A stretch of 64,000 nucleotides of DNA, taken from Eledone cirrhosa (taxonomy: Eukaryota). The position numbers and the translations under genes were made by a program. The stretch covers positions 29,884,001 through 29,948,000 of the forward strand of contig OZ024742.1 in the NCBI GenBank assembly GCA_964016885.1. The letters are read 5' to 3'. The notes beneath the pieces were generated by a model that had not been told where the DNA came from, made no database searches, and saw only the letters and a list, made by a program, of their open reading frames with translations. Shown here piece after piece: positions 37,870 through 62,893 of this stretch (within the stretch, counting starts at the first letter, position 1; every line of letters starts with the position of its first letter).

Positions 37870-38609
37870 TCTCTATATCTCTTTGTCTCTCTATCTCTCT
37901 TTCATTATGTCTATCTTTCTGTTTTTCTTTCTGTCTCTATGTCTCTTTCTCTCCCTCTCTCTCTATTTATCTATCTATCTATCAATATCTCTGTCTCTAT
38001 CCTTCTTTTTGTAGGTCCGTCCCTCTCTCTATATCTCTGTCTGTCTCTCTATCGGTTTCCTTATTTGTCTTTCTTTCTCTTTCTATCTCTTTGTCTCTCG
38101 GTCTGTCCGTCATTCTAACAGCCAGTTCCATTCACTCACTGCCTCACTGTGTACCTCTTCTTCTGTCAGTCTCTCTCTCTATCTATATACCTACATATCT
38201 ACTTACATATCTAGTTATCTATATTTCTATCTATCAGTCTGTCTGTCTTTCTGCCTATCTGTGTATCTATCTACCTATCTACCTATTTCTCTAACTATCT
38301 ATCTATCTGTCTATCTATCTCTCTAACTATCTATCTGTCTATCTATCTACCTATCTACCTAGTTCTCTAACTATCGCCGAGGTTAACTTTGCCTTTCATC
38401 TTTACGGGGTCGATAAAATAAAGTACCAGTAATACACTGGGTAATTGCTGGCCTTGTGCTAAAAGTAGAAACAATTATTTTAATAAAGAAATGTATCTAT
38501 CTATCTATCTGTCTATCTATCTACCTATCTACTTATCTCTCTAACTATCTATCTCTGTCTATCTACCTATCTATCTATATAACTATCTACCTATCTCTCT
38601 AACTATCTA

Positions 38610-38652
<43 letters not shown>
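37870..38652. repeat. Degenerate TCTA/TCTC/TCTG tract ending in pure (TATC)7; landing site of the LINE array
   Basis: Direct reading; interrupted by a SINE fragment at about 38376-38480. Confidence 0.85.
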
Positions 38653-38653
<1 letters not shown>

Positions 38654-38854
38654 GATAGAGTAAGACACGCTTCGCATCGGCTCCGCTATTCCATCGGGAT
38701 TTACCCTTACTATTGTAAGTACCGGATAAATTTTTTAGTGCAACACATTTGGAACACTAACCCCTGTTATTTAGGGAAACATTTTTGCATTTACCCCCTT
38801 TTTAGGGGGTAAAATAAATATCTATTTTTGCCGAAAAATTTCTTTCTTGGCAGC

Positions 38855-40690
38855 ATGGCGGAAAAAATGGCAGACATGTCTGCCATTAGCTCTGCCACGC
38901 CCCCCAAGTCTGAAGAACAAAAAATAATTACAACAAAATTAGACATTGAAACAAACAAACAAAATGAAAAAACAAATGTTAAGGAAAATGAGCAAACAGA
39001 AAACAAACAAACAGAAAATAATACAAATAACGACAGGGCAACTTTCGCCCAGAAAACAAAGCAATCCATTACATACACACCAATTGACCTAACTGCCGCC
39101 AGAGAAAAACTGGCCGAAGCAAAGAAACATATTGTTTTGGGGGAAAACGGAATGTTTTCCATTAACTCCCCCCCAGAATTCAAGAAAGCCAGAGCAGAAA
39201 ACACAGTTATATACAGAACTATACTAAACCAGTCAAGAAAGCCAGCACAGCCCAGCCAAATGGAAATAGAGTTAGTCCTAAAAGACTATATGAAGAATAT
39301 TCTCTTCATACGAAAGGACCGACTCTATGGCAGCATTTCGGTCCTAACAAGAGACAAAGAAACGGCGGTTCAGCTTTCCCTAAGCCCACTCTCGTCGACA
39401 ACATATAGCTTCTATCCCTCCTACATGGGTAGAAGAACTCAGAGAATAAAAGTAAAAACAATGCTGCCCACAATGGACTTCTGGTGGGCTATTGCTGGCT
39501 TCATTGATATGGGCGAAGACACTATGCTGTCAATGGGGAAGGCAACTGGAGATGCGTTCCTGGGAATGGGCCTCGACATACTAGTCCAAATGAGGCCCGA
39601 AAGAATAGCACAAATCCCGGATCGCATCTGGCTGGATGACCTTACCCCAATAGACATAATTGTAGAGGGGAGAAGACCAGCATGCTATTTATGCATGGAA
39701 AGGGGACACGTTAAGGCTAACTGCCCGAAACGTATCCCCCAAAAAGGACTATTGCCCACACCCACCACAAACAGTACACCAGCACCACCCACCTCCAAAA
39801 ATACACTAATACCACACACAGCAAACAAAATACAGACACCACCAACCACAAACACAACACAAACATCACCACCACCAGCACCAAACACAAGCACGACACA
39901 AAAATCACCACCACCAACCACAACACAAACATCACCACCACCATTACCAACCACAAGCACGACACAAACATTACCACCACCACCACCACAAAACCCATTC
40001 CAAACAAATAATAAAAAAAACAGTAACAAATCTACCCCTCCCGCAAAAAAAAAACAACCACACAACACGTCCCTCCCACCTAGCGCTGAAGAGTTTCCCC
40101 CAACTTCTGAAGAAGAAGGAGGAGAAGCCTTCAGACAAGTTAAAAGAAAAAAAAGAAAACACACACCCAGCACACCACAAATAACCCACACACAAACACC
40201 AACTCCAATCAAAAACACCCCACCCTCAACAAACAAAAATAAATCTGCGCCTCCCCTCTCCGAAACATTGACAGCATCACAAAAAAAGACGTTGCAATAC
40301 ACATATATAAATAAAGAAAACAAAAAACTGGTTAAATTAATAAACAATAACCCTATGGTGCAGACCGAAGGGCCAAACTTTATCTCAACAGAGAACTTCA
40401 CCCATTTAAAAATGATAAAGGTCCCTCTGGACCTTTATCGTTCCTTAAAAGAACAATTTAGACGGGACGTGAGCCCCCCCTGTTTAAAACCGTTGAATCG
40501 CGTCCTCTTGAAAGATTTCCCCATAACCGCCCCTCTCCCTGACACAACTCCAAATACCCCAACCCCACCACACACGTGTACCCCCACACCACCACAAAAC
40601 ATCCCTCCACCCAACACACCTGATGCCATGGAAATTACGCCACCCGGAGAGGTAAGTGCTTTTCTTTCTTCACTTTCAACACCAAAATAG
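38855..40690 (+). CDS. LINE ORF1 (gag-like nucleic-acid-binding protein, 611 aa from first ATG), copy 1
   Basis: CCHC zinc knuckle CYLCMERGHVKANC (C-x2-C-x4-H-x4-C), then a Pro/Thr-rich low-complexity region and basic KRKKRK. First ATG at 38855; the ORF track begins at an upstream TTG (38828). Confidence 0.9.
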   Translation: MAEKMADMSAISSATPPKSEEQKIITTKLDIETNKQNEKTNVKENEQTENKQTENNTNNDRATFAQKTKQSITYTPIDLTAAREKLAEAKKHIVLGENGMFSINSPPEFKKARAENTVIYRTILNQSRKPAQPSQMEIELVLKDYMKNILFIRKDRLYGSISVLTRDKETAVQLSLSPLSSTTYSFYPSYMGRRTQRIKVKTMLPTMDFWWAIAGFIDMGEDTMLSMGKATGDAFLGMGLDILVQMRPERIAQIPDRIWLDDLTPIDIIVEGRRPACYLCMERGHVKANCPKRIPQKGLLPTPTTNSTPAPPTSKNTLIPHTANKIQTPPTTNTTQTSPPPAPNTSTTQKSPPPTTTQTSPPPLPTTSTTQTLPPPPPQNPFQTNNKKNSNKSTPPAKKKQPHNTSLPPSAEEFPPTSEEEGGEAFRQVKRKKRKHTPSTPQITHTQTPTPIKNTPPSTNKNKSAPPLSETLTASQKKTLQYTYINKENKKLVKLINNNPMVQTEGPNFISTENFTHLKMIKVPLDLYRSLKEQFRRDVSPPCLKPLNRVLLKDFPITAPLPDTTPNTPTPPHTCTPTPPQNIPPPNTPDAMEITPPGEVSAFLSSLSTPK

Positions 40691-40695
40691 ATCAA

Positions 40696-43600
40696 TTGAG
40701 AGTTGGCTGTTTGAACGCGCGTGGCCTGAGCTCAGCTTGGAAGCAAGCAAAGCTTCTAAGTGACCTCAGGTCACAAAGTATAGATGTGATGGTTGTTTGC
40801 GAGAGTCGGATCAGCAGCGTGAGACAGCTGGCGCCCGCCTTCGATGACTTTGAGATGCACGCATCTCTCTGTCAACCCGGAGCCGGGGGGGGAGTTGCCG
40901 TACTGCTGGATAAACGTCTGACTCTCAACGTACAGATTGTTCACTCGGACCCGGGGGGTCGATTACTGGTGCTGGACGTCGGAGGTGGTGAAGGCGGGGC
41001 TTTCAGACTGGTCGGTCTTTATGCTCCCTTCGGGGCGGAGAGAGCCGACTTCTTCCAACGTCTGGAGACTTTTCTAGGAACGTCGCGTTCCCTGCTTTTA
41101 GTGGGGGACTGGAATGGAATCCTAGATGCGCGTTGGGACTATGCAGGGGCATGTCCCGATAGAGGGGGGTGTAGCAGCCTCAAGGGGTTACTCGATCGAT
41201 TCGACCTGGTCGATAGATTTCGACTAGATTGTCCAACTGCGCCAACCTGGACCTGGGCAAACCGCAGTGGACAATCTAGATCGTACCTAGATAGGTTTTT
41301 GGTTAGGAGTAAGGATAGGGACGTATTTAGTTGTCCAGAACTGATCATGGTTGGCTATTCAGATCACAAATTAGTGACCTGCGTGGTCAACCTTGATAGA
41401 ACGCATAGACAGGGTCCCGGTTACTGGAAGATGAACTTGTCCTTACCGACAAAGAAAGATTACAGAAACCGGATTAGTAGCTTAGTTAAGATGCGGTTGA
41501 CGGGAGCGATCGTCAACAGTAGGTGGTGGATATCTCTAAAGAGAGAGATTAGAGTAAGTTCGATAGGTTACAGTAAGGAACTAGCGGCGAATACAAATAG
41601 GAGGGAAAGGGAGTTAACAGATAAACTAGAAGAGGCGATTAGGAGCGGAGACGTAGCCAGAGTGTTAGCGACGAGAACGGCATTGAGCCAGTTCTTTGAC
41701 GCGAAGCACGAAGGCTGCGTTGTCCGAAGTAAAATACGTGCTTTAGGAAACGAGGGGACCAAAGCTGTTAGCTGGGCCCGCGTGACAGAAGCCAAGAGTG
41801 GGATTAAATCCACCATTCGGTCTTTGCGAGACCAGGATGGACGGGTGATCCTTGAACCTGAGCGAATGTGCGAGACCTTTCAAAGGCACTTTGCTCGACT
41901 GTTCGGAGGTGGCGGGGGGCCGGACGGGGATGTGGACTTCGGTCCATACCTCGACGGTCTACCGCGTCTTTCGAGCGGCGAAGCGGAGTGCTGCGAAGGG
42001 CCAATCACAGCCACTGAAATCGGGGAAGCGCTCAGCCAATGCAGCAGACGCAAATCCCCGGGTCTCGATGGTCTACCATACGAACTTTATTTAGCTATGC
42101 CGGTCTTGTTCTCCGAACTCCTCGAGGCTGTCTATTGCAACTGGCAACAGAACGGGAGAATTCCCTGTTCTGTGACCAAGGGCGTGGTCACGCTAGTGAG
42201 GAAGGACGAGAGCAAGGGGGACGACTTAAGTAACTTTAGGCCCATAACTCTGCTGAATGCAGAGTTACAGATTTTGGCCAAGGTGTTGACGAAGAGGTTG
42301 GCGCTTGTGGTGGGTGGTTTGGTGGGAGACGCGCAGACATGCGCTATCCCGTCCAGGTCCATTCACGACAACCTCCACCTCATGCGATACATCATAGAGA
42401 GGGTTGGCTACGAACCCGGCTTTGGTGGGGCCCTGATCAACTTGGATCAATCTAAGGCGTTCGATAGGGTCGACCATGGTTACCTGGATGCGGTGCTAGC
42501 GGCGGCGGGCTTCGGACCCGTTTTCAGGGGCTGGATTTCTGCCATGCACAGTGGCAACATCTACTCTAGGATTAAAGTAAACGGCTACCTCTCGGAGCCG
42601 TTTCAAATCACCCGATCCATCAGACAGGGGTGCCCCCTCTCCTCCCTTCTGTACGTATTGACTCTCGAGCCACTGCTGCGGAAGTTGGAGTTGCTGCGGG
42701 GCATACCCCTGGAACCGGGATTGCACAAAGCGGTCTCGGCCTATGCCGATGACGTAACAGTAATGGTGGCGGACGCCTCGGAAATCGGGGCGATCGCCAC
42801 CCTACTGGAGGAATACGAAAGGCTGACGGGGGCTAAGCTGAACCAGGACAAGTCAGTCGGTTTGCAACTCGGAACGTGGAGGGGCAAACCGATGCCGTTA
42901 GACGGTGTCGTCGGGCGGTGGACGGAGGGCCCGGTGAAGCTGCTCGGGGTCTGGTTCGGACCGGACCTCCAGGTGGAGAAGAATTGGGGCGAGGTGACGA
43001 GCAGGGTGTTTGCGCTGACCCAGAAGTGGGCCAAGTGCAAACTATCACTGAAAGGTCGGGCGGAGGTGACGAACGCTTACATAGCGTCCGTCATCTACTA
43101 CCGCCTGACCGTCGTGCCTTGCCCCAAGGAAAAGCTCACCATCATGGAACGCATGCTCTTCCAGTTCCTCTGGAAGAAGCGGCCTCCCATGGTGAGGAGA
43201 TCCATCTGCTGCCAGCACCCTTCGAAAGGAGGGCTGGGTATGCCGTGGCTGTTGATGCGTAGGCACGCATTGAGGCTACGGCATCTACAGGTATTCCTCA
43301 ACGGTCAGCCGGTGTGGGCCCCGTTTGTGAGGCGAGCCTTCCCACAGCTCGTCTCGCTCACCGAACTGCAATCCTGGGTGAAGCAAAGACCGAGAAAAAT
43401 GGGCAACTGGCACACTGAGTGTGCCCAGGCGCTCACGGCTATCTGGCAAGCGGACCCGACTGTCAGTGGAGAATCCACCTCGACATTCTATAGAGGGTTG
43501 GTGGCTAGCAGGGGCGACGACACCCTTGGAGAGTCGCTAGGCATGGAGGAGGACGAACTGGCCAGCCTGTTCGGTAGAACTTTCGGCCCGGGACCCATGG

Positions 43601-44124
43601 ACAACTTCCAGAGGTCCCTAGCCTGGCAGTGTTACCGGGGGGCTCTGCCCGTTCGAGAAAAGCTCTACAGACACGGGCGCCCGGGCAGGGATCCCGCGAA
43701 AAAGATCTGTCCCAGATGCGTGCGCGACGAGGAAACCGTTGCGCATGCACTGGTACACTGCCCGGGCGTTGCCGATCTGTGGGGCTACGTCGAACGACTG
43801 CTGTCGCGTGTGGCGCCGATTCGATTAACCGCCGAGTCTGTGGTGAACATCAAGCCGCCTCCTCCCTTCAGAAATGAAGCAGAGGCGGTCTTTCTGTGCG
43901 TAATAGCCATGATGAAAGAGGTTGTGTGGTGGACGCGCCTGAAAGGTCTGAGGTCGGGTGACTTTCTCTCCGGCCATCACCTGGTTTACTTCTTCCGATA
44001 CCACTTCGGAAGAAGAATCAGGATGGAGAGAGAAGTGCTTGGTCCCAGACAGTTTTATGAAAGGTGGGTGAAAGAAGCGAGAATGGCCCGTGTAAATGGG
44101 CCTTCTCTCTACATTGTTCTGTAG
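40696..44124 (+). CDS. LINE ORF2 (APE endonuclease, reverse transcriptase, C-terminal CCHC), copy 1; non-AUG start
   Basis: APE motifs LNARGL, VCES, GDWN, YLDR, SDH; L1/Tx1-type GPGYWKMN; RT motifs FRPITLLN, DQSKAFDRVDH, RQGCPLS, YADD; C-terminal CPRC-x8-H-x4-C. Uninterrupted 1142 codons. Confidence 0.95.
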   Translation: MRVGCLNARGLSSAWKQAKLLSDLRSQSIDVMVVCESRISSVRQLAPAFDDFEMHASLCQPGAGGGVAVLLDKRLTLNVQIVHSDPGGRLLVLDVGGGEGGAFRLVGLYAPFGAERADFFQRLETFLGTSRSLLLVGDWNGILDARWDYAGACPDRGGCSSLKGLLDRFDLVDRFRLDCPTAPTWTWANRSGQSRSYLDRFLVRSKDRDVFSCPELIMVGYSDHKLVTCVVNLDRTHRQGPGYWKMNLSLPTKKDYRNRISSLVKMRLTGAIVNSRWWISLKREIRVSSIGYSKELAANTNRRERELTDKLEEAIRSGDVARVLATRTALSQFFDAKHEGCVVRSKIRALGNEGTKAVSWARVTEAKSGIKSTIRSLRDQDGRVILEPERMCETFQRHFARLFGGGGGPDGDVDFGPYLDGLPRLSSGEAECCEGPITATEIGEALSQCSRRKSPGLDGLPYELYLAMPVLFSELLEAVYCNWQQNGRIPCSVTKGVVTLVRKDESKGDDLSNFRPITLLNAELQILAKVLTKRLALVVGGLVGDAQTCAIPSRSIHDNLHLMRYIIERVGYEPGFGGALINLDQSKAFDRVDHGYLDAVLAAAGFGPVFRGWISAMHSGNIYSRIKVNGYLSEPFQITRSIRQGCPLSSLLYVLTLEPLLRKLELLRGIPLEPGLHKAVSAYADDVTVMVADASEIGAIATLLEEYERLTGAKLNQDKSVGLQLGTWRGKPMPLDGVVGRWTEGPVKLLGVWFGPDLQVEKNWGEVTSRVFALTQKWAKCKLSLKGRAEVTNAYIASVIYYRLTVVPCPKEKLTIMERMLFQFLWKKRPPMVRRSICCQHPSKGGLGMPWLLMRRHALRLRHLQVFLNGQPVWAPFVRRAFPQLVSLTELQSWVKQRPRKMGNWHTECAQALTAIWQADPTVSGESTSTFYRGLVASRGDDTLGESLGMEEDELASLFGRTFGPGPMDNFQRSLAWQCYRGALPVREKLYRHGRPGRDPAKKICPRCVRDEETVAHALVHCPGVADLWGYVERLLSRVAPIRLTAESVVNIKPPPPFRNEAEAVFLCVIAMMKEVVWWTRLKGLRSGDFLSGHHLVYFFRYHFGRRIRMEREVLGPRQFYERWVKEARMARVNGPSLYIVL

Positions 44125-44567
44125 GTGAAGAAGTGAAGAGGAAAGGGGGAGCGCCTCCTCTCTGGGCTTCCCCCGCGAAAAGAGTTGCACACTTTTCGGG
44201 GGTATGTGCAATCCCCAACACGCCCCCTCCCTTTTGAGGACTTTTTATTGTTATATTATTATTGTTATTCCTTTTTTCTTTACTCGATTTATGTAAACTC
44301 CCCCACTGTGTAAATGTCCCCTTCTTTTGTGCCCTCGTGGCAAATAAATAGAAATTTATCTATCTTGATAGAGTAAGACACGCTTCGCATCGGCTCCGCT
44401 ATTCCATCGGGATTTACCCTTACTATTGTAAGTACCGGATAAATTTTTTAGTGCAACACATTTGGAACACTAACCCCTGTTATTTAGGGAAACATTTTTG
44501 CATTTACCCCCTTTTTAGGGGGTAAAATAAATATCTATTTTTGCCGAAAAATTTCTTTCTTGGCAGC

Positions 44568-46403
44568 ATGGCGGAAAAGATGGCAGACATGTCTGCCATT
44601 AGCTCTGCCACGCCCCCCAAGTCTGAAGAACAAAAAATAATTACAACAAAATTAGACATTGAAACAAACAAACAAAATGAAAAAACAAATGTTAAGGAAA
44701 ATGAGCAAACAGAAAACAAACAAACAGAAAATAATACAAATAACGACAGGGCAACTTTCGCCCAGAAAACAAAGCAATCCATTACATACACACCAATTGA
44801 CCTAACTGCCGCCAGAGAAAAACTGGCCGAAGCAAAGAAACATATTGTTTTGGGGGAAAACGGAATGTTTTCCATTAACTCCCCCCCAGAATTCAAGAAA
44901 GCCAGAGCAGAAAACACAGTTATATACAGAACTATACTAAACCAGTCAAGAAAGCCAGCACAGCCCAGCCAAATGGAAATAGAGTTAGTCCTAAAAGACT
45001 ATATGAAGAATATTCTCTTCATACGAAAGGACCGACTCTATGGCAGCATTTCGGTCCTAACAAGAGACAAAGAAACGGCGGTTCAGCTTTCCCTAAGCCC
45101 ACTCTCGTCGACAACATATAGCTTCTATCCCTCCTACATGGGTAGAAGAACACAGAGGGTAAAAGTAAAAACAATGCTGCCCACAATGGACTTCTGGTGG
45201 GCTATTGCTGGCTTCATTGATATGGGCGAAGACACTATGCTGTCAATGGGGAAGGCAACTGGAGATGCGTTCCTGGGAATGGGCCTCGACATACTAGTCC
45301 AAATGAGGCCCGAAAGAATAGCACAAATCCCGGATCGCATCTGGCTGGATGACCTTACCCCAATAGACATAATTGTAGAGGGGAGAAGACCAGCATGCTA
45401 TTTATGCATGGAAAGGGGACACGTTAAGGCTAACTGCCCGAAACGTATCCCCCAAAAAGGACTATTGCCCACACCCACCACAAACAGTACACCAGCACCA
45501 CCCACCTCCAAAAATACACTAATACCACACACAGCAAACAAAATACAGACACCACCAACCACAAACACAACACAAACATCACCACCACCAGCACCAAACA
45601 CAAGCACGACACAAAAATCACCACCACCAACCACAACACAAACATCACCACCACCATTACCAACCACAAGCACGACACAAACATTACCACCACCACCACC
45701 ACAAAACCCATTCCAAACAAATAATAAAAAAAACAGTAACAAATCTACCCCTCCCGCAAAAAAAAAACAACCACACAACACGTCCCTCCCACCTAGCGCT
45801 GAAGAGTTTCCCCCAACTTCTGAAGAAGAAGGAGGAGAAGCCTTCAGACAAGTTAAAAGAAAAAAAAGAAAACACACACCCAGCACACCACAAATAACCC
45901 ACACACAAACACCAACTCCAATCAAAAACACCCCACCCTCAACAAACAAAAATAAATCTGCGCCTCCCCTCTCCGAAACATTGACAGCATCACAAAAAAA
46001 GACGTTGCAATACACATATATAAATAAAGAAAACAAAAAACTGGTTAAATTAATAAACAATAACCCTATGGTGCAGACCGAAGGGCCAAACTTTATCTCA
46101 ACAGAGAACTTCACCCATTTAAAAATGATAAAGGTCCCTCTGGACCTTTATCGTTCCTTAAAAGAACAATTTAGACGGGACGTGAGCCCCCCCTGTTTAA
46201 AACCGTTGAATCGCGTCCTCTTGAAAGATTTCCCCATAACCGCCCCTCTCCCTGACACAACTCCAAATACCCCAACCCCACCACACACGTGTACCCCCAC
46301 ACCACCACAAAACATCCCTCCACCCAACACACCTGATGCCATGGAAATTACGCAACCCGGAGAGGTAAGTGCTTTTCTTTCTTCACTTTCAACACCAAAA
46401 TAG
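44568..46403 (+). CDS. LINE ORF1, copy 2
   Basis: Intact; differs from copy 1 at TQRIK->TQRVK and ITPPG->ITQPG. Confidence 0.9.
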   Translation: MAEKMADMSAISSATPPKSEEQKIITTKLDIETNKQNEKTNVKENEQTENKQTENNTNNDRATFAQKTKQSITYTPIDLTAAREKLAEAKKHIVLGENGMFSINSPPEFKKARAENTVIYRTILNQSRKPAQPSQMEIELVLKDYMKNILFIRKDRLYGSISVLTRDKETAVQLSLSPLSSTTYSFYPSYMGRRTQRVKVKTMLPTMDFWWAIAGFIDMGEDTMLSMGKATGDAFLGMGLDILVQMRPERIAQIPDRIWLDDLTPIDIIVEGRRPACYLCMERGHVKANCPKRIPQKGLLPTPTTNSTPAPPTSKNTLIPHTANKIQTPPTTNTTQTSPPPAPNTSTTQKSPPPTTTQTSPPPLPTTSTTQTLPPPPPQNPFQTNNKKNSNKSTPPAKKKQPHNTSLPPSAEEFPPTSEEEGGEAFRQVKRKKRKHTPSTPQITHTQTPTPIKNTPPSTNKNKSAPPLSETLTASQKKTLQYTYINKENKKLVKLINNNPMVQTEGPNFISTENFTHLKMIKVPLDLYRSLKEQFRRDVSPPCLKPLNRVLLKDFPITAPLPDTTPNTPTPPHTCTPTPPQNIPPPNTPDAMEITQPGEVSAFLSSLSTPK

Positions 46404-46408
46404 ATCAA

Positions 46409-49400
46409 TTGAGAGTTGGCTGTTTGAACGCGCGTGGCCTGAGCTCAGCTTGGAAGCAAGCAAAGCTTCTAAGTGACCTCAGGTCACAAAGTATAGATGT
46501 GATGGTTGTTTGCGAGAGTCGGATCAGCAGCGTGAGACAGCTGGCGCCCGCCTTCGATGACTTTGAGATGCACGCATCTCTCTGTCAACCCGGAGGCGGG
46601 GGGGGAGTTGCCGTACTGCTGGATAAACGTCTGACTCTCGACGTACAGATTGTTCACTCGGACCCGGGGGGTCGATTACTGGTGCTGGACGTCGGAGGTG
46701 GTGAAGGCGGGGCTTTCAGACTGGTCGGTCTTTATGCTCCCTTCGGGGCGGAGAGAGCCGACTTCTTCCAACGTCTGGAGACTTTTCTAGGAACGTCGCG
46801 TTCCCTGCTTTTAGTGGGGGACTGGAATGGAATCCTAGATGCGCGTTGGGACTATGCAGGGGCATGTCCCGATAGAGGGGGGTGTAGCATCCTCAAGGGG
46901 TTACTCGATCGATTCGACCTGGTCGATAGATTTCGACTAGATTGTCCAACTGCGCCAACCTGGACCTGGGCAAACCGCAGTGGACAATCTAGATCGTACC
47001 TAGATAGGTTTTTGGTTAGGAGTAAGGATAGGGACGTATTTAGTTGTCCAGAACTGATCATGGTTGGCTATTCAGATCACAAATTAGTGACCTGCGTGGT
47101 CAACCTTGATAGAACGCATAGACAGGGTCCCGGTTACTGGAAGATGAACTTGTCCTTACCGACAAAGAAAGATTACAGAAACCGGATTAGTAGCTTAGTT
47201 AAGATGCGGTTGACGGGAGCGATCGTCAACAGTAGGTGGTGGATATCTCTAAAGAGAGAGATTAGAGTAAGTTCGATAGGTTACAGTAAGGAACTAGCGG
47301 CGAATAGAAATAGGAGGGAAAGGGAGTTAACAGATAAACTAGAAGAGGCGATTAGGAGCGGAGACGTAGCCAGAGTGTTAGCGACGAGAACGGCATTGAG
47401 CCAGTTCTTTGACGCGAAGCACGAAGGCTGCGTTGTCCGAAGTAAAATACGTGCTTTAGGAAACGAGGGGACCAAAGCTGTTAGCTGGGCCCGCGTGACA
47501 GAAGCCAAGAGTGGGATTAAATCCACCATTCGGTCTTTGCGAGACCAGGATGGACGGGTGATCCTTGAACCTGAGCGAATGTGCGAGACCTTTCAAAGGC
47601 ACTTTGCTCGACTGTTCGGAGGTGGCGGGGGGCCGGACGGGGATGTGGACTTCGGTCCATACCTCGACGGTCTACCGCGTCTTTCGAGCGGCGAAGCGGA
47701 GTGCTGCGAAGGGCCAATCACAGCCACTGAAATCGGGGAAGCGCTCAGCCAATGCAGCAGACGCAAATCCCCGGGTCTCGATGGTCTACCATACGAACTT
47801 TATTTAGCTATGCCGGTCTTGTTCTCCGAACTCCTCGAGGCTGTCTATTGCAACTGGCAACAGAACGGGAGAATTCCCTGTTCTGTGACCAAGGGCGTGG
47901 TCACGCTAGTGAGGAAGGACGAGAGCAAGGGGGACGACTTAAGTAACTTTAGGCCCATAACTCTGCTGAATGCAGAGTTACAGATTTTGGCCAAGGTGTT
48001 GGCGAAGAGGTTGGCGCTTGTGGTGGGTGGTTTGGTGGGAGACGCGCAGACATGCGCTATCCCGTCCAGGTCCATTCACGACAACCTCCACCTCATGCGA
48101 TACATCATAGAGAGGGTTGGCTACGAACCCGGCTTTGGTGGGGCCCTGATCAACTTGGATCAATCTAAGGCGTTCGATAGGGTCGACCATGGTTACCTGG
48201 ATGCGGTGCTAGCGGCGGCGGGCTTCGGACCCGTTTTCAGGGGCTGGATTTCTGCCATGCACAGTGGCAACATCTACTCTAGGATTAAAGTAAACGGCTA
48301 CCTCTCGGAGCCGTTTCAAATCACCCGATCCATCAGACAGGGGTGCCCCCTCTCCTCCCTTCTGTACGTATTGACTCTCGAGCCACTGCTGCGGAAGTTG
48401 GAGTTGCTGCGGGGCATACCCCTGGAACCGGGATTGCACAAAGCGGTCTCGGCCTATGCCGACGACGTAACAGTAATGGTGGCGGACGCCTCGGAAATCG
48501 GGGCGATCGCCACCCTACTGGAGGAATACGAAAGGCTGACGGGGGCTAAGCTGAACCAGGACAAGTCAGTCGGTTTGCAACTCGGAACGTGGAGGGGCAA
48601 ACCGATGCCGTTAGACGGTGTCGTCGGGCGGTGGACGGAGGGCCCGGTGAAGCTGCTCGGGGTCTGGTTCGGACCGGACCTCCAGGTGGAGAAGAATTGG
48701 GGCGAGGTGACGAGCAGGGTGTTTGCGCTGACCCAGAAGTGGGCCAAGTGCAAACTATCACTGAAAGGTCGGGCGGAGGTGACGAACGCTTACATAGCGT
48801 CCGTCATCTACTACCGCCTGACCGTCGTGCCTTGCCCCAAGGAAAAGCTCACCATCATGGAACGCATGCTCTTCCAGTTCCTCTGGAAGAAGCGGCCTCC
48901 CATGGTGAGGAGATCCATCTGCTGCCAGCACCCTTCGAAAGGAGGGCTGGGTATGCCGTGGCTGTTGATGCGTAGGCACGCATTGAGGCTACGGCATCTA
49001 CAGGTATTCCTCAACGGTCAGCCGGTGTGGGCCCCGTTTGTGAGGCGAGCCTTCCCACAGCTCGTCTCGCTCACCGAACTGCAATCCTGGGTGAAGCAAA
49101 GACCGAGAAAACTGGGCAACTGGCACACTGAGTGTGCCCAGGCGCTCACGGCTATCTGGCAAGCGGACCCGACTGTCAGTGGAGAATCCACCTCGACATT
49201 CTATAGAGGGTTGGTGGCTAGCAGGGGCGACGACACCCTTGGAGAGTCGCTAGGCATGGAGGAGGACGAACTGGCCAGCCTGTTCGGTAGAACTTTCGGC
49301 CCGGGACCCATGGACAACTTCCAGAGGTCCCTAGCCTGGCAGTGTTACCGGGGGGCTCTGCCCGTTCGAGAAAAGCTCTACAGACACGGGCGCCCGGGCA

Positions 49401-49837
49401 GGGATCCCGCGAAAAAGATCTGTCCCAGATGCGTGCGCGACGAGGAAACCGTTGCGCATGCACTGGTACACTGCCCGGGCGTTGCCGATCTGTGGGGCTA
49501 CGTCGAACGACTGCTGTCGCGTGTGGCGCCGATTCGATTAACCGCCGAGTCTGTGGTGAACATCAAGCCGCCTCCTCCCTTCAGAAATGAAGCAGAGGCG
49601 GTCTTTCTGTGCGTAATAGCCATGATGAAAGAGGTTGTGTGGTGGACGCGCCTGAAAGGTCTGAGGTCGGGTGACTTTCTCTCCGGCCATCACCTGGTTT
49701 ACTTCTTCCGATACCACTTCGGAAGAAGAATCAGGATGGAGAGAGAAGTGCTTGGTCCCAGACAGTTTTATGAAAGGTGGGTGAAAGAAGCGCGAATGGC
49801 CCGTGTAAATGGGCCTTCTCTCTACATTGTTCTGTAG
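46409..49837 (+). CDS. LINE ORF2 (APE-RT-ZnF), copy 2
   Basis: Intact 1142 codons with all catalytic motifs; a few substitutions versus copies 1 and 3. Confidence 0.95.
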   Translation: MRVGCLNARGLSSAWKQAKLLSDLRSQSIDVMVVCESRISSVRQLAPAFDDFEMHASLCQPGGGGGVAVLLDKRLTLDVQIVHSDPGGRLLVLDVGGGEGGAFRLVGLYAPFGAERADFFQRLETFLGTSRSLLLVGDWNGILDARWDYAGACPDRGGCSILKGLLDRFDLVDRFRLDCPTAPTWTWANRSGQSRSYLDRFLVRSKDRDVFSCPELIMVGYSDHKLVTCVVNLDRTHRQGPGYWKMNLSLPTKKDYRNRISSLVKMRLTGAIVNSRWWISLKREIRVSSIGYSKELAANRNRRERELTDKLEEAIRSGDVARVLATRTALSQFFDAKHEGCVVRSKIRALGNEGTKAVSWARVTEAKSGIKSTIRSLRDQDGRVILEPERMCETFQRHFARLFGGGGGPDGDVDFGPYLDGLPRLSSGEAECCEGPITATEIGEALSQCSRRKSPGLDGLPYELYLAMPVLFSELLEAVYCNWQQNGRIPCSVTKGVVTLVRKDESKGDDLSNFRPITLLNAELQILAKVLAKRLALVVGGLVGDAQTCAIPSRSIHDNLHLMRYIIERVGYEPGFGGALINLDQSKAFDRVDHGYLDAVLAAAGFGPVFRGWISAMHSGNIYSRIKVNGYLSEPFQITRSIRQGCPLSSLLYVLTLEPLLRKLELLRGIPLEPGLHKAVSAYADDVTVMVADASEIGAIATLLEEYERLTGAKLNQDKSVGLQLGTWRGKPMPLDGVVGRWTEGPVKLLGVWFGPDLQVEKNWGEVTSRVFALTQKWAKCKLSLKGRAEVTNAYIASVIYYRLTVVPCPKEKLTIMERMLFQFLWKKRPPMVRRSICCQHPSKGGLGMPWLLMRRHALRLRHLQVFLNGQPVWAPFVRRAFPQLVSLTELQSWVKQRPRKLGNWHTECAQALTAIWQADPTVSGESTSTFYRGLVASRGDDTLGESLGMEEDELASLFGRTFGPGPMDNFQRSLAWQCYRGALPVREKLYRHGRPGRDPAKKICPRCVRDEETVAHALVHCPGVADLWGYVERLLSRVAPIRLTAESVVNIKPPPPFRNEAEAVFLCVIAMMKEVVWWTRLKGLRSGDFLSGHHLVYFFRYHFGRRIRMEREVLGPRQFYERWVKEARMARVNGPSLYIVL

Positions 49838-50300
49838 GTGAAGAAGTGAAGAGGAAAGGGGGAGCGCCTCCTCTCTGGGCTTCCCCCGCGAAAAGAGTTG
49901 CACACTTTTCGGGGGTATGTGCAATCCCCAACACGCCCCCTCCCTTTTGAGGACTTTTTATTGTTATATTATTATTGTTATTCCTTTTTTCTTTACTCGA
50001 TTTATGTAAACTCCCCCACTGTGTAAATGTCCCCTTCTTTTGTGCCCTCATGGCAAATAAATAGAAATTTATCTATCTATCTATCTATCTATCTATCTTG
50101 ATAGAGTAAGACACGCTTCGCATCGGCTCCGCTATTCCATCGGGATTTACCCTTACTATTGTAAGTACCGGATAAATTTTTTAGTGCAACACATTTGGAA
50201 CACTAACCCCTGTTATTTAGGGAAACATTTTTGCATTTACCCCCTTTTTAGGGGGTAAAATAAATATCTATTTTTGCCGAAAAATTTCTTTCTTGGCAGC

Positions 50301-52136
50301 ATGGCGGAAAAGATGGCAGACATGTCTGCCATTAGCTCTGCCACGCCCCCCAAGTCTGAAGAACAAAAAATAATTACAACAAAATTAGACATTGAAACAA
50401 ACAAACAAAATGAAAAAACAAATGTTAAGGAAAATGAGCAAACAGAAAACAAACAAACAGAAAATAATACAAATAACGACAGGGCAACTTTCGCCCAGAA
50501 AACAAAGCAATCCATTACATACACACCAATTGACCTAACTGCCGCCAGAGAAAAACTGGCCGAAGCAAAGAAACATATTGTTTTGGGGGAAAACGGAATG
50601 TTTTCCATTAACTCCCCCCCAGAATTCAAGAAAGCCAGAGCAGAAAACACAGTTATATACAGAACTATACTAAACCAGTCAAGAAAGCCAGCACAGCCCA
50701 GCCAAATGGAAATAGAGTTAGTCCTAAAAGACTATATGAAGAATATTCTCTTCATACGAAAGGACCGACTCTATGGCAGCATTTCGGTCCTAACAAGAGA
50801 CAAAGAAACGGCGGTTCAGCTTTCCCTAAGCCCACTCTCGTCGACAACATATAGCTTCTATCCCTCCTACATGGGTAGAAGAACTCAGAGAATAAAAGTA
50901 AAAACAATGCTGCCCACAATGGACTTCTGGTGGGCTATTGCTGGCTTCATTGATATGGGCGAAGACACTATGCTGTCAATGGGGAAGGCAACTGGAGATG
51001 CGTTCCTGGGAATGGGCCTCGACATACTAGTCCAAATGAGGCCCGAAAGAATAGCACAAATCCCGGATCGCATCTGGCTGGATGACCTTACCCCAATAGA
51101 CATAATTGTAGAGGGGAGAAGACCAGCATGCTATTTATGCATGGAAAGGGGACACGTTAAGGCTAACTGCCCGAAACGTATCCCCCAAAAAGGACTATTG
51201 CCCACACCCACCACAAACAGTACACCAGCACCACCCACCTCCAAAAATACACTAATACCACACACAGCAAACAAAATACAGACACCACCAACCACAAACA
51301 CAACACAAACATCACCACCACCAGCACCAAACACAAGCACGACACAAAAATCACCACCACCAACCACAACACAAACATCACCACCACCATTACCAACCAC
51401 AAGCACGACACAAACATTACCACCACCACCACCACAAAACCCATTCCAAACAAATAATAAAAAAAACAGTAACAAATCTACCCCTCCCGCAAAAAAAAAA
51501 CAACCACACAACACGTCCCTCCCACCTAGCGCTGAAGAGTTTCCCCCAACTTCTGAAGAAGAAGGAGGAGAAGCCTTCAGACAAGTTAAAAGAAAAAAAA
51601 GAAAACACACACCCAGCACACCACAAATAACCCACACACAAACACCAACTCCAATCAAAAACACCCCACCCTCAACAAACAAAAATAAATCTGCGCCTCC
51701 CCTCTCCGAAACATTGACAGCATCACAAAAAAAGACGTTGCAATACACATATATAAATAAAGAAAACAAAAAACTGGTTAAATTAATAAACAATAACCCT
51801 ATGGTGCAGACCGAAGGGCCAAACTTTATCTCAACAGAGAACTTCACCCATTTAAAAATGATAAAGGTCCCTCTGGACCTTTATCGTTCCTTAAAAGAAC
51901 AATTTAGACGGGACGTGAGCCCCCCCTGTTTAAAACCGTTGAATCGCGTCCTCTTGAAAGATTTCCCCATAACCGCCCCTCTCCCTGACACAACTCCAAA
52001 TACCCCAACCCCACCACACACGTGTACCCCCACACCACCACAAAACATCCCTCCACCCAACACACCTGATGCCATGGAAATTACGCCACCCGGAGAGGTA
52101 AGTGCTTTTCTTTCTTCACTTTCAACACCAAAATAG
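50301..52136 (+). CDS. LINE ORF1, copy 3
   Basis: Intact; protein matches copy 1 in the ORF track. Confidence 0.9.
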   Translation: MAEKMADMSAISSATPPKSEEQKIITTKLDIETNKQNEKTNVKENEQTENKQTENNTNNDRATFAQKTKQSITYTPIDLTAAREKLAEAKKHIVLGENGMFSINSPPEFKKARAENTVIYRTILNQSRKPAQPSQMEIELVLKDYMKNILFIRKDRLYGSISVLTRDKETAVQLSLSPLSSTTYSFYPSYMGRRTQRIKVKTMLPTMDFWWAIAGFIDMGEDTMLSMGKATGDAFLGMGLDILVQMRPERIAQIPDRIWLDDLTPIDIIVEGRRPACYLCMERGHVKANCPKRIPQKGLLPTPTTNSTPAPPTSKNTLIPHTANKIQTPPTTNTTQTSPPPAPNTSTTQKSPPPTTTQTSPPPLPTTSTTQTLPPPPPQNPFQTNNKKNSNKSTPPAKKKQPHNTSLPPSAEEFPPTSEEEGGEAFRQVKRKKRKHTPSTPQITHTQTPTPIKNTPPSTNKNKSAPPLSETLTASQKKTLQYTYINKENKKLVKLINNNPMVQTEGPNFISTENFTHLKMIKVPLDLYRSLKEQFRRDVSPPCLKPLNRVLLKDFPITAPLPDTTPNTPTPPHTCTPTPPQNIPPPNTPDAMEITPPGEVSAFLSSLSTPK

Positions 52137-52141
52137 ATCAA

Positions 52142-55100
52142 TTGAGAGTTGGCTGTTTGAACGCGCGTGGCCTGAGCTCAGCTTGGAAGCAAGCAAAGCT
52201 TCTAAGTGACCTCAGGTCACAAAGTATAGATGTGATGGTTGTTTGCGAGAGTCGGATCAGCAGCGTGAGACAGCTGGCGCCCGCCTTCGATGACTTTGAG
52301 ATGCACGCATCTCTCTGTCAACCCGGAGGCGGGGGGGGAGTTGCCGTACTGCTGGATAAACGTCTGACTCTCGACGTACAGATTGTTCACTCGGACCCGG
52401 GGGGTCGATTACTGGTGCTGGACGTCGGAGGTGGTGAAGGCGGGGCTTTCAGACTGGTCGGTCTTTATGCTCCCTTCGGGGCGGAGAGAGCCGACTTCTT
52501 CCAACGTCTGGAGACTTTTCTAGGAACGTCGCGTTCCCTGCTTTTAGTGGGGGACTGGAATGGAATCCTAGATGCGCGTTGGGACTATGCAGGGGCATGT
52601 CCCGATAGAGGGGGGTGTAGCAGCCTCAAGGGGTTACTCGATCGATTCGACCTGGTCGATAGATTTCGACTAGATTGTCCAACTGCGCCAACCTGGACCT
52701 GGGCAAACCGCAGTGGACAATCTAGATCGTACCTAGATAGGTTTTTGGTTAGGAGTAAGGATAGGGACGTATTTAGTTGTCCAGAACTGATCATGGTTGG
52801 CTATTCAGATCACAAATTAGTGACCTGCGTGGTCAACCTTGATAGAACGCATAGACAGGGTCCCGGTTACTGGAAGATGAACTTGTCCTTACCGACAAAG
52901 AAAGATTACAGAAACCGGATTAGTAGCTTAGTTAAGATGCGGTTGACGGGAGCGATCGTCAACAGTAGGTGGTGGATATCTCTAAAGAGAGAGATTAGAG
53001 TAAGTTCGATAGGTTACAGTAAGGAACTAGCGGCGAATACAAATAGGAGGGAAAGGGAGTTAACAGATAAACTAGAAGAGGCGATTAGGAGCGGAGACGT
53101 AGCCAGAGTGTTAGCGACGAGAACGGCATTGAGCCAGTTCTTTGACGCGAAGCACGAAGGCTGCGTTGTCCGAAGTAAAATACGTGCTTTAGGAAACGAG
53201 GGGACCAAAGCTGTTAGCTGGGCCCGCGTGACAGAAGCCAAGAGTGGGATTAAATCCACCATTCGGTCTTTGCGAGACCAGGATGGACGGGTGATCCTTG
53301 AACCTGAGCGAATGTGCGAGACCTTTCAAAGGCACTTTGCTCGACTGTTCGGAGGTGGCGGGGGGCCGGACGGGGATGTGGACTTCGGTCCATACCTCGA
53401 CGGTCTACCGCGTCTTTCGAGCGGCGAAGCGGAGTGCTGCGAAGGGCCAATCACAGCCACTGAAATCGGGGAAGCGCTCAGCCAATGCAGCAGACGCAAA
53501 TCCCCGGGTCTCGATGGTCTACCATACGAACTTTATTTAGCTATGCCGGTCTTGTTCTCCGAACTCCTCGAGGCTGTCTATTGCAACTGGCAACAGAACG
53601 GGAGAATTCCCTGTTCTGTGACCAAGGGCGTGGTCACGCTAGTGAGGAAGGACGAGAGCAAGGGGGACGACTTAAGTAACTTTAGGCCCATAACTCTGCT
53701 GAATGCAGAGTTACAGATTTTGGCCAAGGTGTTGACGAAGAGGTTGGCGCTTGTGGTGGGTGGTTTGGTGGGAGACGCGCAGACATGCGCTATCCCGTCC
53801 AGGTCCATTCACGACAACCTCCACCTCATGCGATACATCATAGAGAGGGTTGGCTACGAACCCGGCTTTGGTGGGGCCCTGATCAACTTGGATCAATCTA
53901 AGGCGTTCGATAGGGTCGACCATGGTTACCTGGATGCGGTGCTAGCGGCGGCGGGCTTCGGACCCGTTTTCAGGGGCTGGATTTCTGCCATGCACAGTGG
54001 CAACATCTACTCTAGGATTAAAGTAAACGGCTACCTCTCGGAGCCGTTTCAAATCACCCGATCCATCAGACAGGGGTGCCCCCTCTCCTCCCTTCTGTAC
54101 GTATTGACTCTCGAGCCACTGCTGCGGAAGTTGGAGTTGCTGCGGGGCATACCCCTGGAACCGGGATTGCACAAAGCGGTCTCGGCCTATGCCGATGACG
54201 TAACAGTAATGGTGGCGGACGCCTCGGAAATCGGGGCGATCGCCACCCTACTGGAGGAATACGAAAGGCTGACGGGGGCTAAGCTGAACCAGGACAAGTC
54301 AGTCGGTTTGCAACTCGGAACGTGGAGGGGCAAACCGATGCCGTTAGACGGTGTCGTCGGGCGGTGGACGGAGGGCCCGGTGAAGCTGCTCGGGGTCTGG
54401 TTCGGACCGGACCTCCAGGTGGAGAAGAATTGGGGCGAGGTGACGAGCAGGGTGTTTGCGCTGACCCAGAAGTGGGCCAAGTGCAAACTATCACTGAAAG
54501 GTCGGGCGGAGGTGACGAACGCTTACATAGCGTCCGTCATCTACTACCGCCTGACCGTCGTGCCTTGCCCCAAGGAAAAGCTCACCATCATGGAACGCAT
54601 GCTCTTCCAGTTCCTCTGGAAGAAGCGGCCTCCCATGGTGAGGAGATCCATCTGCTGCCAGCACCCTTCGAAAGGAGGGCTGGGTATGCCGTGGCTGTTG
54701 ATGCGTAGGCACGCATTGAGGCTACGGCATCTACAGGTATTCCTCAACGGTCAGCCGGTGTGGGCCCCGTTTGTGAGGCGAGCCTTCCCACAGCTCGTCT
54801 CGCTCACCGAACTGCAATCCTGGGTGAAGCAAAGACCGAGAAAACTGGGCAACTGGCACACTGAGTGTGCCCAGGCGCTCACGGCTATCTGGCAAGCGGA
54901 CCCGACTGTCAGTGGAGAATCCACCTCGACATTCTATAGAGGGTTGGTGGCTAGCAGGGGCGACGACACCCTTGGAGAGTCGCTAGGCATGGAGGAGGAC
55001 GAACTGGCCAGCCTGTTCGGTAGAACTTTCGGCCCGGGACCCATGGACAACTTCCAGAGGTCCCTAGCCTGGCAGTGTTACCGGGGGGCTCTGCCCGTTC

Positions 55101-55570
55101 GAGAAAAGCTCTACAGACACGGGCGCCCGGGCAGGGATCCCGCGAAAAAGATCTGTCCCAGATGCGTGCGCGACGAGGAAACCGTTGCGCATGCACTGGT
55201 ACACTGCCCGGGCGTTGCCGATCTGTGGGGCTACGTCGAACGACTGCTGTCGCGTGTGGCGCCGATTCGATTAACCGCCGAGTCTGTGGTGAACATCAAG
55301 CCGCCTCCTCCCTTCAGAAATGAAGCAGAGGCGGTCTTTCTGTGCGTAATAGCCATGATGAAAGAGGTTGTGTGGTGGACGCGCCTGAAAGGTCTGAGGT
55401 CGGGTGACTTTCTCTCCGGCCATCACCTGGTTTACTTCTTCCGATACCACTTCGGAAGAAGAATCAGGATGGAGAGAGAAGTGCTTGGTCCCAGACAGTT
55501 TTATGAAAGGTGGGTGAAAGAAGCGAGAATGGCCCGTGTAAATGGGCCTTCTCTCTACATTGTTCTGTAG
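52142..55570 (+). CDS. LINE ORF2 (APE-RT-ZnF), copy 3
   Basis: Intact 1142 codons with all catalytic motifs. Confidence 0.95.
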   Translation: MRVGCLNARGLSSAWKQAKLLSDLRSQSIDVMVVCESRISSVRQLAPAFDDFEMHASLCQPGGGGGVAVLLDKRLTLDVQIVHSDPGGRLLVLDVGGGEGGAFRLVGLYAPFGAERADFFQRLETFLGTSRSLLLVGDWNGILDARWDYAGACPDRGGCSSLKGLLDRFDLVDRFRLDCPTAPTWTWANRSGQSRSYLDRFLVRSKDRDVFSCPELIMVGYSDHKLVTCVVNLDRTHRQGPGYWKMNLSLPTKKDYRNRISSLVKMRLTGAIVNSRWWISLKREIRVSSIGYSKELAANTNRRERELTDKLEEAIRSGDVARVLATRTALSQFFDAKHEGCVVRSKIRALGNEGTKAVSWARVTEAKSGIKSTIRSLRDQDGRVILEPERMCETFQRHFARLFGGGGGPDGDVDFGPYLDGLPRLSSGEAECCEGPITATEIGEALSQCSRRKSPGLDGLPYELYLAMPVLFSELLEAVYCNWQQNGRIPCSVTKGVVTLVRKDESKGDDLSNFRPITLLNAELQILAKVLTKRLALVVGGLVGDAQTCAIPSRSIHDNLHLMRYIIERVGYEPGFGGALINLDQSKAFDRVDHGYLDAVLAAAGFGPVFRGWISAMHSGNIYSRIKVNGYLSEPFQITRSIRQGCPLSSLLYVLTLEPLLRKLELLRGIPLEPGLHKAVSAYADDVTVMVADASEIGAIATLLEEYERLTGAKLNQDKSVGLQLGTWRGKPMPLDGVVGRWTEGPVKLLGVWFGPDLQVEKNWGEVTSRVFALTQKWAKCKLSLKGRAEVTNAYIASVIYYRLTVVPCPKEKLTIMERMLFQFLWKKRPPMVRRSICCQHPSKGGLGMPWLLMRRHALRLRHLQVFLNGQPVWAPFVRRAFPQLVSLTELQSWVKQRPRKLGNWHTECAQALTAIWQADPTVSGESTSTFYRGLVASRGDDTLGESLGMEEDELASLFGRTFGPGPMDNFQRSLAWQCYRGALPVREKLYRHGRPGRDPAKKICPRCVRDEETVAHALVHCPGVADLWGYVERLLSRVAPIRLTAESVVNIKPPPPFRNEAEAVFLCVIAMMKEVVWWTRLKGLRSGDFLSGHHLVYFFRYHFGRRIRMEREVLGPRQFYERWVKEARMARVNGPSLYIVL

Positions 55571-56254
55571 GTGAAGAAGTGAAGAGGAAAGGGGGAGCGC
55601 CTCCTCTCTGGGCTTCCCCCGCGAAAAGAGTTGCACACTTTTCGGGGGTATGTGCAATCCCCAACACGCCCCCTCCCTTTTGAGGACTTTTTATTGTTAT
55701 ATTATTATTGTTATTCCTTTTTTCTTTACTCGATTTATGTAAACTCCCCCACTGTGTAAATGTCCCCTTCTTTTGTGCCCTCGTGGCAAATAAATAGAAA
55801 TTTATCTATCTATCTATCTATCCGTCTTGCTAACACTCTATCTTATTGTCTGGATGTCCGACTCCCTGATTGACCGACTATATGTTGAAATAAGGAGGCC
55901 AAGTTTTTATCAGAATGTTTTGATTGGTTGCTATAGCGAATAGCGAAAGTAAAAGTGAAAGCAAAAGCGAAAATAAAAGAGGAAGAAGAGAAAGAAGTGG
56001 GTGAGGTTGGAGAAACGGAAAACGTAATAACGCTAAATATTATCTCAGGATATTTAATGTGTGTCTACCGTATATAAAGCTTGCTTGCCTTTATTGACCA
56101 CACTTATTGAGTGAGATATCATTGTGTATCTCTCGCTATCTGGACAAATTGATGACCGAAGGGAGAGAACAAATATTTGTGGGAGATATTTTTGTCAGGT
56201 GAACAGTTATTAATAAAACAACAACAGCAACAATAGTAACAATAGCAATAATGG

Positions 56255-56378: not shown

Positions 56379-56487
56379 GGAAACAATAAAAATATATATA
56401 AAACAAAGATTGAAGCCGTTTTCCAATGACGTCTTTATTGTTCATACTGTTGTTATGGTTGTTTTTCTTCTTCTTTTTCTTCTAACA

Positions 56488-56952: not shown

Positions 56953-56993
<41 letters not shown>

Positions 56994-59139: not shown

Positions 59140-59459
59140 TGTATATATATATATATAGAGAGAGAGAGAGGGGGTTGAATATATAGAGAGATGGGGGATA
59201 TCGAGAGAGATAGAGAGATAGATAGATAGATTTCTTTATTTGCCACTAGGGCACAAGAGAAAGGGACAAATACACAGGGGGGAGTTTACATAAATGCGAG
59301 TAAAGAAAAAGGCATAACAATAAGAATAATAAAATAATAAAAAGTCCTCAAAAGGGAGGGGGCGTGTTGGGGATTGCACATACCCCCGAAAAGTGTGCAA
59401 CCCTTTTCGCGGGGGAAGCCCAGGGAGGAGGCGCTTCCCTTTCCTCTTCACTTCTTCAC

Positions 59460-62400: not shown

Positions 62401-62888
62401 TTGAGGCTGCTACACCCCCCTCTATCGGGACATGCCCCTGCATAGTCCCAACGCGCATCTAGAAATCCATTCCAGTCGCCCACTAAAAGCAGGGAATGCG
62501 ACGTTCCTAGAAAAGTCTCCAGACGCTGGAAGAAGTCGGCTCTTTCAGCCCCGAAGGGGGCATAAAGACCGACCAGTCTGAAAGCCCCGCCTTCACCGCC
62601 TCCGACGTCCAGCACCAGTAATCGACCCCCTGGGTCCGAGTGAACAATCTGTACGTCGAGAGCCAGACGTTTATCCAGCAGTACGGCAACCCCACCCCCG
62701 CCTCCGTGTTGACAGAGAGATGCGTGCATCTCAAAGTCATCGAAGGCGGGAGCCAGCTGTCGCACGCTGCTGATCCGACTCTCGCAAACAACCATCACAT
62801 CTATACTTCGTGACCTGAGGTCACTTAGAAGCTTTGCTTGCTTCCAAGCTGAGCCCAGGCCACGCGCATTCAAACAGCCAACTCTCAA
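59460..62888 (-). pseudogene. Disrupted ORF2 of copy 4
   Basis: Premature stops at about 61500 (GLPY*) and about 60662 (TGG->TAG); frameshifts near 60965 and 60405. Confidence 0.9.
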
Positions 62889-62893
62889 TTGAT

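Follow-up and report, generated by a model that had tools for sequence, protein, structure and literature searches.

Tandem LINE copies in the window

The window analysed here, a stretch of 64,000 nucleotides from the 3.0-Gb genome of Eledone cirrhosa (assembly GCA_964016885.1, contig OZ024742.1, positions 29,884,001 to 29,948,000; G000:C3:29884001-29948000 in the locus notation used below), contains three tandem copies of a long interspersed nuclear element (LINE) embedded in TATC repeats. The initial annotation described three intact, head-to-tail elements of 5,704 bp joined only by TATC tracts and devoid of poly(A), and re-reading the window bears this out: the copies W1, W2 and W3 are each exactly 5,704 bp long, none has a poly(A), and each carries a first open reading frame (ORF1) of 611 aa and an uninterrupted ORF2 frame (Table 1). 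W1 and W3 differ at 4 sites, W2 and W3 at 10, and W1 and W2 at 14. The reading favoured here, with a probability of roughly 0.7, is that these copies belong to a recently active L1-like family, likely of the Tx1 group, and that the array grew by separate insertions into target left on both sides of older copies.

An inverted copy, W4, lies downstream (loci elsewhere in the genome are designated L followed by a number). It is full length, 95-96% identical and ends in TATC repeats at 59230; its 122 private substitutions agree with the greater age first ascribed to it. It is not a solitary copy: past the window end, (TATC)3T (13 nt) and a young copy (L161) precede its head, and W4 thus belongs to a second array. 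The T before GATAG at the element starts may already belong to the element as its first base, and one sister family likewise begins with TTGATA.

Table 1. The LINE array and the inverted copy, in window positions (UTR, untranslated region; RT, reverse transcriptase; APE, apurinic/apyrimidinic endonuclease)
Feature	Position	Strand	Remarks
Upstream tract (TATC)7T	38624..38652	+	Terminates degenerate TATC/TGTC/TAAC-rich flank (38170-38651)
Copy W1, 5,704 bp	38653..44356	+	Same lineage as W3; likely inserted before the W2 head
W1 ORF1, 611 aa	38855..40690	+	One CCHC zinc knuckle (Pfam zf-CCHC, under the curated cut-off); long Pro/Thr-rich part
W1 ORF2 frame	40687..44124	+	From ATA overlapping the ORF1 stop (ATAG); APE endonuclease, RT, zf-RVT
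W1 first ORF2-frame ATG	40789	+	Within the endonuclease
W1 3' UTR, 232 nt	44125..44356	+	AATAAA immediately before the end; without poly(A)
Short junction (TATC)2T	44357..44365	+	Head-insertion class
Copy W2	44366..50069	+	Different lineage; closest match among dispersed copies L114 (5 differences); likely array founder
W2 ORF1	44568..46403	+	
W2 ORF2 frame	46400..49837	+	
Long junction (TATC)7T	50070..50098	+	Tail-insertion class
Copy W3	50099..55802	+	Closest match among dispersed copies L108 (3 differences); no private substitutions
W3 ORF1	50301..52136	+	
W3 ORF2 frame	52133..55570	+	
Downstream tract (TATC)5	55803..55822	+	
Inverted copy W4 with TATC tail	59217..64000	-	Runs beyond the window end; older, ORFs broken

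Genome-wide insertion into TATC repeats

The genome carries about 570 copies of this LINE within (TATC)n/(GATA)n tracts; almost all are complete and share one start base. A 23-mer from inside the 5' end has 314 occurrences, 310 of which follow TATC-T-TGATA, and the two exceptions that were inspected (L006, L239) are single substitutions within TATC tracts. With shorter search patterns, which differ from each other by two bases, 572 heads (TATC before TTGATAG) are found versus 575 in total. In 20 evenly spaced 10-kb control stretches (200 kb; 400,000 strand-positions), only 570 strand-positions (0.14%) follow TATCT and 12 follow TATCTATCT. The TATC flanks of the heads are therefore not due to chance, and the proposed TATC/GATA specificity, together with the constant start base and repeat phase, is supported on the scale of the genome. 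A prevalence of non-TATC 5' flanks, named at the outset as evidence to the contrary, is not observed (310/314 are TATC), yet these flanks are confounded by TATC that is probably borne by the element RNA, as discussed below. The controls hold 2 TATC tracts of at least 3 units versus 872 strand-counted TA tracts, and TC tracts are commoner than TATC (16 vs 2 in 200 kb), with no pure-TC junctions.

Among 60 copies retrieved in list order, 59 have both ends of the element. Pure repeat extends upstream for at least 5 nt in all 77 full copies (median 24) and downstream for at least 4 nt in 76 of them (median 21). Of 729 occurrences of a 19-mer from the 3' end, 573 are followed by TATCT; 20 exceptions were fetched, comprising 19 members of one sister family and one point variant. 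On contig 1, 57 of 59 3' ends belong to this LINE and two to other families; 52 of the 57 copies retain the 5' end (32 + 14 judged from fetched sequence or flanks, 6 from head position only) and five are truncated. Seven more 3' ends fetched in the search for truncated copies represent five full copies and two members of other families.

Classification and known relatives

The family is an APE-type non-long terminal repeat retrotransposon of the L1 group, a placement based on its ORF2 domain set, target-site duplications and 5' truncation. ORF2 contains an N-terminal APE domain, an RT and a C-terminal CCHC motif (Pfam Exo_endo_phos, RVT_1 and zf-RVT). Human L1 ORF2p (PDB 8uw3) is the best of 11 PDB matches (E 2e-48; R2 proteins reach 1e-23 or weaker), aligning over residues 5-853 with the catalytic endonuclease and RT motifs and a similar 9-residue hairpin loop. 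Unlike human L1, the family lacks poly(A), has a CCHC-type ORF1 instead of Transposase_22, has a strict repeat target and is mostly full length.

Membership in the Tx1 group is likely, judging from the L1-like ORF2, the CCHC-bearing ORF1 and the site specificity, not from a tree; named Tx1 references were found neither among 20 + 150 homologues and 10 clusters nor in an Atlas look-up. Among APE clades, site-specific insertion is reported for Tx1 and R1 only (PMC13295347; this and the other papers are cited from excerpts), and this feature is present here (310/314 heads, 7/8 truncated sister copies). Tx1 elements are further characterized by a type I ORF1 (RRM + CCHC) rather than Transposase_22 (PMC5203782). 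In the present ORF1, the one CCHC knuckle scores below the Pfam cut-off, and Transposase_22 and Pfam RRM give no match; its Atlas look-alikes are CCHC proteins (0.90-0.92) and RRM/ZCCHC3 leads (0.89-0.90), and a homologue search at E 0.001 yielded none.

Several LINEs with microsatellite targets have been described. Waldo, Mino and Dong are members of other clades (R1 and R4). They are likewise microsatellite-specific, for ACAY, AC and TAA, respectively (PMC3812793). Kibi, Koshi and crocodilian Tx1 families resemble the present family in being APE-type elements with two ORFs that insert into microsatellites; compared by description only, they target (TC)n, (TTC)n, (TTCC)n or (TTTC)n versus TATC here, and the excerpts mention TATC/GATA for none of them (PMC4494074, PMC3812793). 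As the initial annotation supposed, no TATC/GATA-specific LINE was found in the literature searched; Repbase and Dfam were outside the search, so a catalogued TATC-specific Tx1 is possible. In Octopus vulgaris, 13 recently active L1-Tx1 families account for 421 insertions and 2.29 Mb at ~5.4 kb each, and are likewise mostly long (PMC13282606); in the excerpts of that paper, the word 'target' has no match in the text and TATC none in the supplement.

Sister families

At least five further families (C, D, E, F and G) reside in TATC, interleaved with this one, making at least six close TATC families with ORF2 ~77-89% identical. Truncated copies of sister families begin directly after a TATC tract in 7 of 8 cases. 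Family G has two observed heads, both in TATC. In family E, the 5' hairpin is not target-like and the 5' junctions are variable (5/5 differ). Family B (L141-L160; G000:C1, for example 63365978-63372678) lies instead inside a minisatellite of 25-30 bp, CTCTCTATATC, itself situated within another dispersed repeat with conserved flanks. One target-like 15-mer, which folds into a 10-bp hairpin (z -4.8), precedes 11 of 11 family B heads, and the 3' flanks are variable. In a quick, provisional tree that left out rows of <300 aa or <70% identity and had outgroups without named Tx1, B nests with G among the TATC families (Shimodaira-Hasegawa-like approximate likelihood ratio test, SH-aLRT, 96). The endonuclease residues of B also occur in G, which is represented by one locus. 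The endonuclease hairpin loop was considered as the cause of the target switch in B and rejected, its length being equal and its sequence similar across all families.

Two of the 20 control stretches (L185, L193) contain members of sister families or still more remote relatives, which means that the clade as a whole greatly outnumbers this family. The clade is also present in other organisms (sequencing runs X5 and X6, designated organisms B and C), and X6 contigs of 138 and 158 nt match the 3' end of this family with zero differences.

Coding capacity, translation and activity

None of 83 family copies begins ORF2 with an AUG; the frame opens instead at the ATA overlapping the ORF1 stop, in 80 copies exactly alike. 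In the 13 sister rows, this position is ATG throughout. The first ATG of the family ORF2 lies 34 codons in, beyond the first endonuclease strand, and the codons before it differ from those of the sisters largely synonymously. ORF2p is likely produced through re-initiation without an AUG at the overlapping ATAG, or else through a -1 frameshift. The nearest described case is the UAAUG of SART1, in which the ORF1 stop overlaps the ORF2 start (PMC3894237); the overlap here is AUAG and contains no AUG. Splicing was rejected as a source of an ORF2 AUG, since use of the conserved ORF1-end GTAAGT with the nearby AG gives nothing but an in-frame ORF1 product.

The perfect splice-donor-like motif AG/GTAAGT at the ORF1 end (window 40652-40657 and equivalents) is conserved in the family and its sisters and holds the ORF1 stop in several of them; donor-like motifs also occur ~60 nt inside the 5' UTR, near window position 38715. 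Two strong hairpins lie ahead of the ORF1 start (window 50215-50300; z -2.87), the first of which is maintained by compensating changes in sister families.

Both ORFs are kept in 17 of 83 copies, and the median number of private substitutions is 6. For variants found in at least 5 copies, the ratio of nonsynonymous to synonymous polymorphism (pN/pS) is 0.20 in ORF2 and 0.30 in ORF1, as compared with 0.68 and 0.62 for private variants; both ORFs are under purifying selection in source copies. The copies show no signature of adenosine-to-inosine editing: private C>T (163) and G>A (182) changes lead, with A>G at 72 and T>C at 62. Thus, of the suggestion that the element could still be active and serve as an integration tool, recent activity is upheld, and the missing ORF2 AUG bears on any use as a tool.

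Proposed insertion mechanism and target recognition

Beyond copy number, flanks, lineages, two junction classes and purifying selection on both ORFs, which are read directly from the genome, we infer the following steps. The APE endonuclease would nick the GATA strand, and an element RNA ending in a few UAUC units would anneal at the nick and prime reverse transcription; such an RNA end is expected because AATAAA lies so near the element end that cleavage would fall within the tract. The RNA would also start with ~1-5 UAUC units, and annealing of the finished cDNA to upstream TATC would result in the invariant 5' junction and the high full-length share, in the manner of the 28S leader of R2. 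In R2, 5' homologous joining provides the parallel: with an RNA leader resembling the target, the cDNA would end in sequence able to anneal upstream, yielding precise 5' junctions (PMC13580325, PMC13708176). R2 differs in having a restriction-like endonuclease, an rDNA target and a ribozyme like that of hepatitis delta virus (PMC13580325, PMC13708176); an Rfam scan of the whole present element for self-cleaving ribozymes gave no match near the gathering score and three weak chance matches.

The flanks suggest that the 5' TATC-T is probably carried in part by the RNA. A pure tract of 21-25 nt is found upstream in 28 of 74 copies and downstream in 11 of 74; in several copies the upstream repeat is pure although interruptions occur within 4-13 nt in the downstream target, and L098 carries 12 nt more than its 21-bp duplication accounts for. 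The constant target-like 15-mer before family B heads, seen together with variable 3' flanks, is likewise evidence for a leader. Because of this probable RNA contribution, the 5' flanks of full copies are no clean test of targeting. Target-site duplications of 12-21 bp are seen at L090, L098, L126 and L129, those at L090 and L098 being 21-bp duplications of interrupted repeats, and the TATC surroundings are long or degenerate for 59 of 74 copies. Among the five truncated copies of the family, two begin right after TATC, with target duplications of 18 bp and 12-16 bp.

Several points weigh against this mechanism. The other three truncated family copies abut sister-element sequence and have no TATC on the 5' side; the upstream peak at 21-25 nt could also reflect nicking where the tract begins, combined with a 21-bp duplication; the hairpin in this family's leader is no better than those of shuffled sequences (z -0.71, against -4.8 in family B and -2.1 in G); and nicking, leader and tail are all deduced from the junctions only.

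A different and less likely account is that TATC at both ends is mostly encoded by the element as leader and tail, the endonuclease having a weak core preference and RNA-DNA annealing selecting TATC-like sites. The pre-insertion sites at L119 and L133, which look like just 1-2 units, fit it, as does the pairing of B with G, which have endonuclease residues in common and cluster in the quick tree (SH-aLRT 96) but occupy different targets, although the protein evidence for G is a single locus. The truncated sister copies, however, are unable to carry a leader and still lie in TATC in 7 of 8 cases, and the duplicated interrupted repeats indicate tracts that existed before insertion. This account would moreover change what reads the target, not whether targeting occurs. 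TATC targeting is real, and the endonuclease and RNA-DNA pairing may each have a share in reading the target; for such elements generally, the mechanism of target choice is called not well understood (PMC3812793).

A related idea, equally speculative, is that this clade represents APE-type LINEs whose insertion is steered by target-like RNA ends. The leader would supply the 5' side of a terminal hairpin, and hairpin and target would have changed together as family B left TATC for a minisatellite, the B endonuclease having stayed close to that of the TATC-dwelling G. If true, this would be a natural case of RNA-programmed retargeting in which insertions are base-precise and ~90% full-length, and the clade would itself generate much of the target that it uses.

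Growth of the arrays

Same-family junctions, counted up to 35 nt, number 36 on many contigs and fall into two classes, 23 with 1-3 TATC units and 13 with 5-8; none has 4. Relative age was compared at 30 of them (17 short, 13 long) by scoring rare variants per 1.5 kb on both sides. At short junctions, the upstream copy has fewer rare variants in 12 of 17 cases, equal numbers in 1 and more in 4 (totals of 28 upstream and 74 downstream). At long junctions, the downstream copy has fewer in 9 of 13 (77 upstream, 53 downstream). The contrast between the classes is significant (Mann-Whitney p=0.009), and the rare-variant baseline is alike in the two regions compared (217 and 239). These patterns suggest that short junctions mark insertion before an older head, and that long ones mostly mark insertion into an older tail. 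A nick 5-13 nt before the old head would leave the short junction, the old head supplying the homology, and insertion into the old tail would leave the long one. The claim that arrays arise by insertion of elements into their own tails thus survives as regards independent insertions but not as regards tails only, given that 23 of the 36 junctions are of the short class, in which the upstream copy tends to be the younger.

The W2 haplotype is common to 14 dispersed copies, and W2 is nearer to 26 dispersed copies than to W1. Since W2 is of a different lineage from W1 and W3, the array is no simple triplication; the likely order is W2 first, then W3 into the W2 tail and W1 before the W2 head. Stacking by regeneration of the target, as initially proposed, likely applies to this array, and the mechanism itself is already established in general (10.1101/158386). 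R1 arrays and SINEU-3 form tandems via repeated insertion into a preserved target followed by unequal exchange (10.1101/158386, PMC4494074). The present arrays differ in that most same-family junctions are shorter than the target duplication, marking head insertion, and in that mixed-family arrays are common: a clade tail lies within 130 nt ahead of 38 of 74 heads, and by motif-based classing 32 of these tails are from a sister family and 6 from the family itself; mixed arrays thus outnumber pure ones.

Some observations limit the case for separate insertions. Two variants occur in both W1 and W3 but in none of 59 others, so one of these copies may be locally derived from the other. The age signal is absent at the window's own short junction (W1 and W2 have 3 private substitutions each), and junctions within triplets are not independent of each other. 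Same-family adjacency (36/572) is only modestly above that expected from scarce targets, and the estimate of 3,600-108,000 TATC tracts genome-wide rests on 2 events.

Growth without new insertions, by unequal recombination between flanking TATC tracts, is unlikely for this array. The closeness of W1 and W3 (4 differences, two shared private variants) would suit such a tandem duplication, and L102/L103 and L226/L227 appear to have been duplicated elsewhere; yet W2 is closer to those 26 dispersed copies than to W1, the three junction lengths differ, and a duplication of W1 would not skip W2 without an extra insertion. Local recombination after insertion may still have copied a minority of arrays elsewhere: L102 and L103 have 3 differences and identical 69-nt spacers, L226 and L227 have 1 and 0 differences in their 1.5-kb ends, and L098/L099 are perhaps a further local duplication. 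At L106 and L107 (G000:C2:38.73-38.75 Mb), two neighbouring copies with 9 differences between them are each preceded by an identically broken, 5'-truncated sister piece of 745 bp, a case of either mixed-unit duplication or 5' co-mobilisation.

A jump of the reverse transcriptase between two RNAs within a single event could yield junctions of 5-13 nt, shorter than the observed duplications of 12-21 bp, and neighbours from different lineages; it is nevertheless improbable as the origin of short junctions, as the age difference between partners runs one way and W4, with its 122 private substitutions, is preceded by a young copy. An assembly artefact (an expanded repeat or stacked haplotypes) is very improbable, because the copies hold distinct variants, each common to different dispersed copies, and 36 comparable junctions occur across many contigs. 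Among the contigs of four public sequencing runs, none spanned the array and no empty allele was present.

Significance

Stacking itself is expected; what is new is the target and the unusual precision of the junctions within a known kind of element. The TATC repeat, new to the literature searched, widens the range of targets known for the few site-specific APE LINEs. With TATC families, family B moved to another target, family E with imprecise 5' ends and one family without an ORF2 AUG, a single genome offers a natural experiment on endonuclease versus RNA-DNA pairing. For RNA-templated gene insertion, a high proportion of full-length products and exact 5' joints are desirable. GATA repeats are numerous and scattered, however, so an insertion tool of this type would be multi-site, not single-site.

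Other features of the window

The repeat landscape seems octopus-like. A 28-bp satellite array (~95 copies) lies at 35094-37705, 1 kb upstream of the LINE array, and a 26-bp satellite array (~47 copies) at 30856-32113. A short dispersed SINE (short interspersed nuclear element)-like repeat occurs at 21030, 29668-29769 and 38402, one copy being in the upstream flank of the LINE array. Positions 7059-7415 on the minus strand, adjoining TA/GATA repeats, hold a fragment resembling a GIY-YIG endonuclease, presumably Penelope-like. Between the LINE array and W4, a degenerate CAA/CTA trinucleotide array of 1.3 kb (56442-57755) gives rise to spurious poly-Thr/Ser/Val ORFs.

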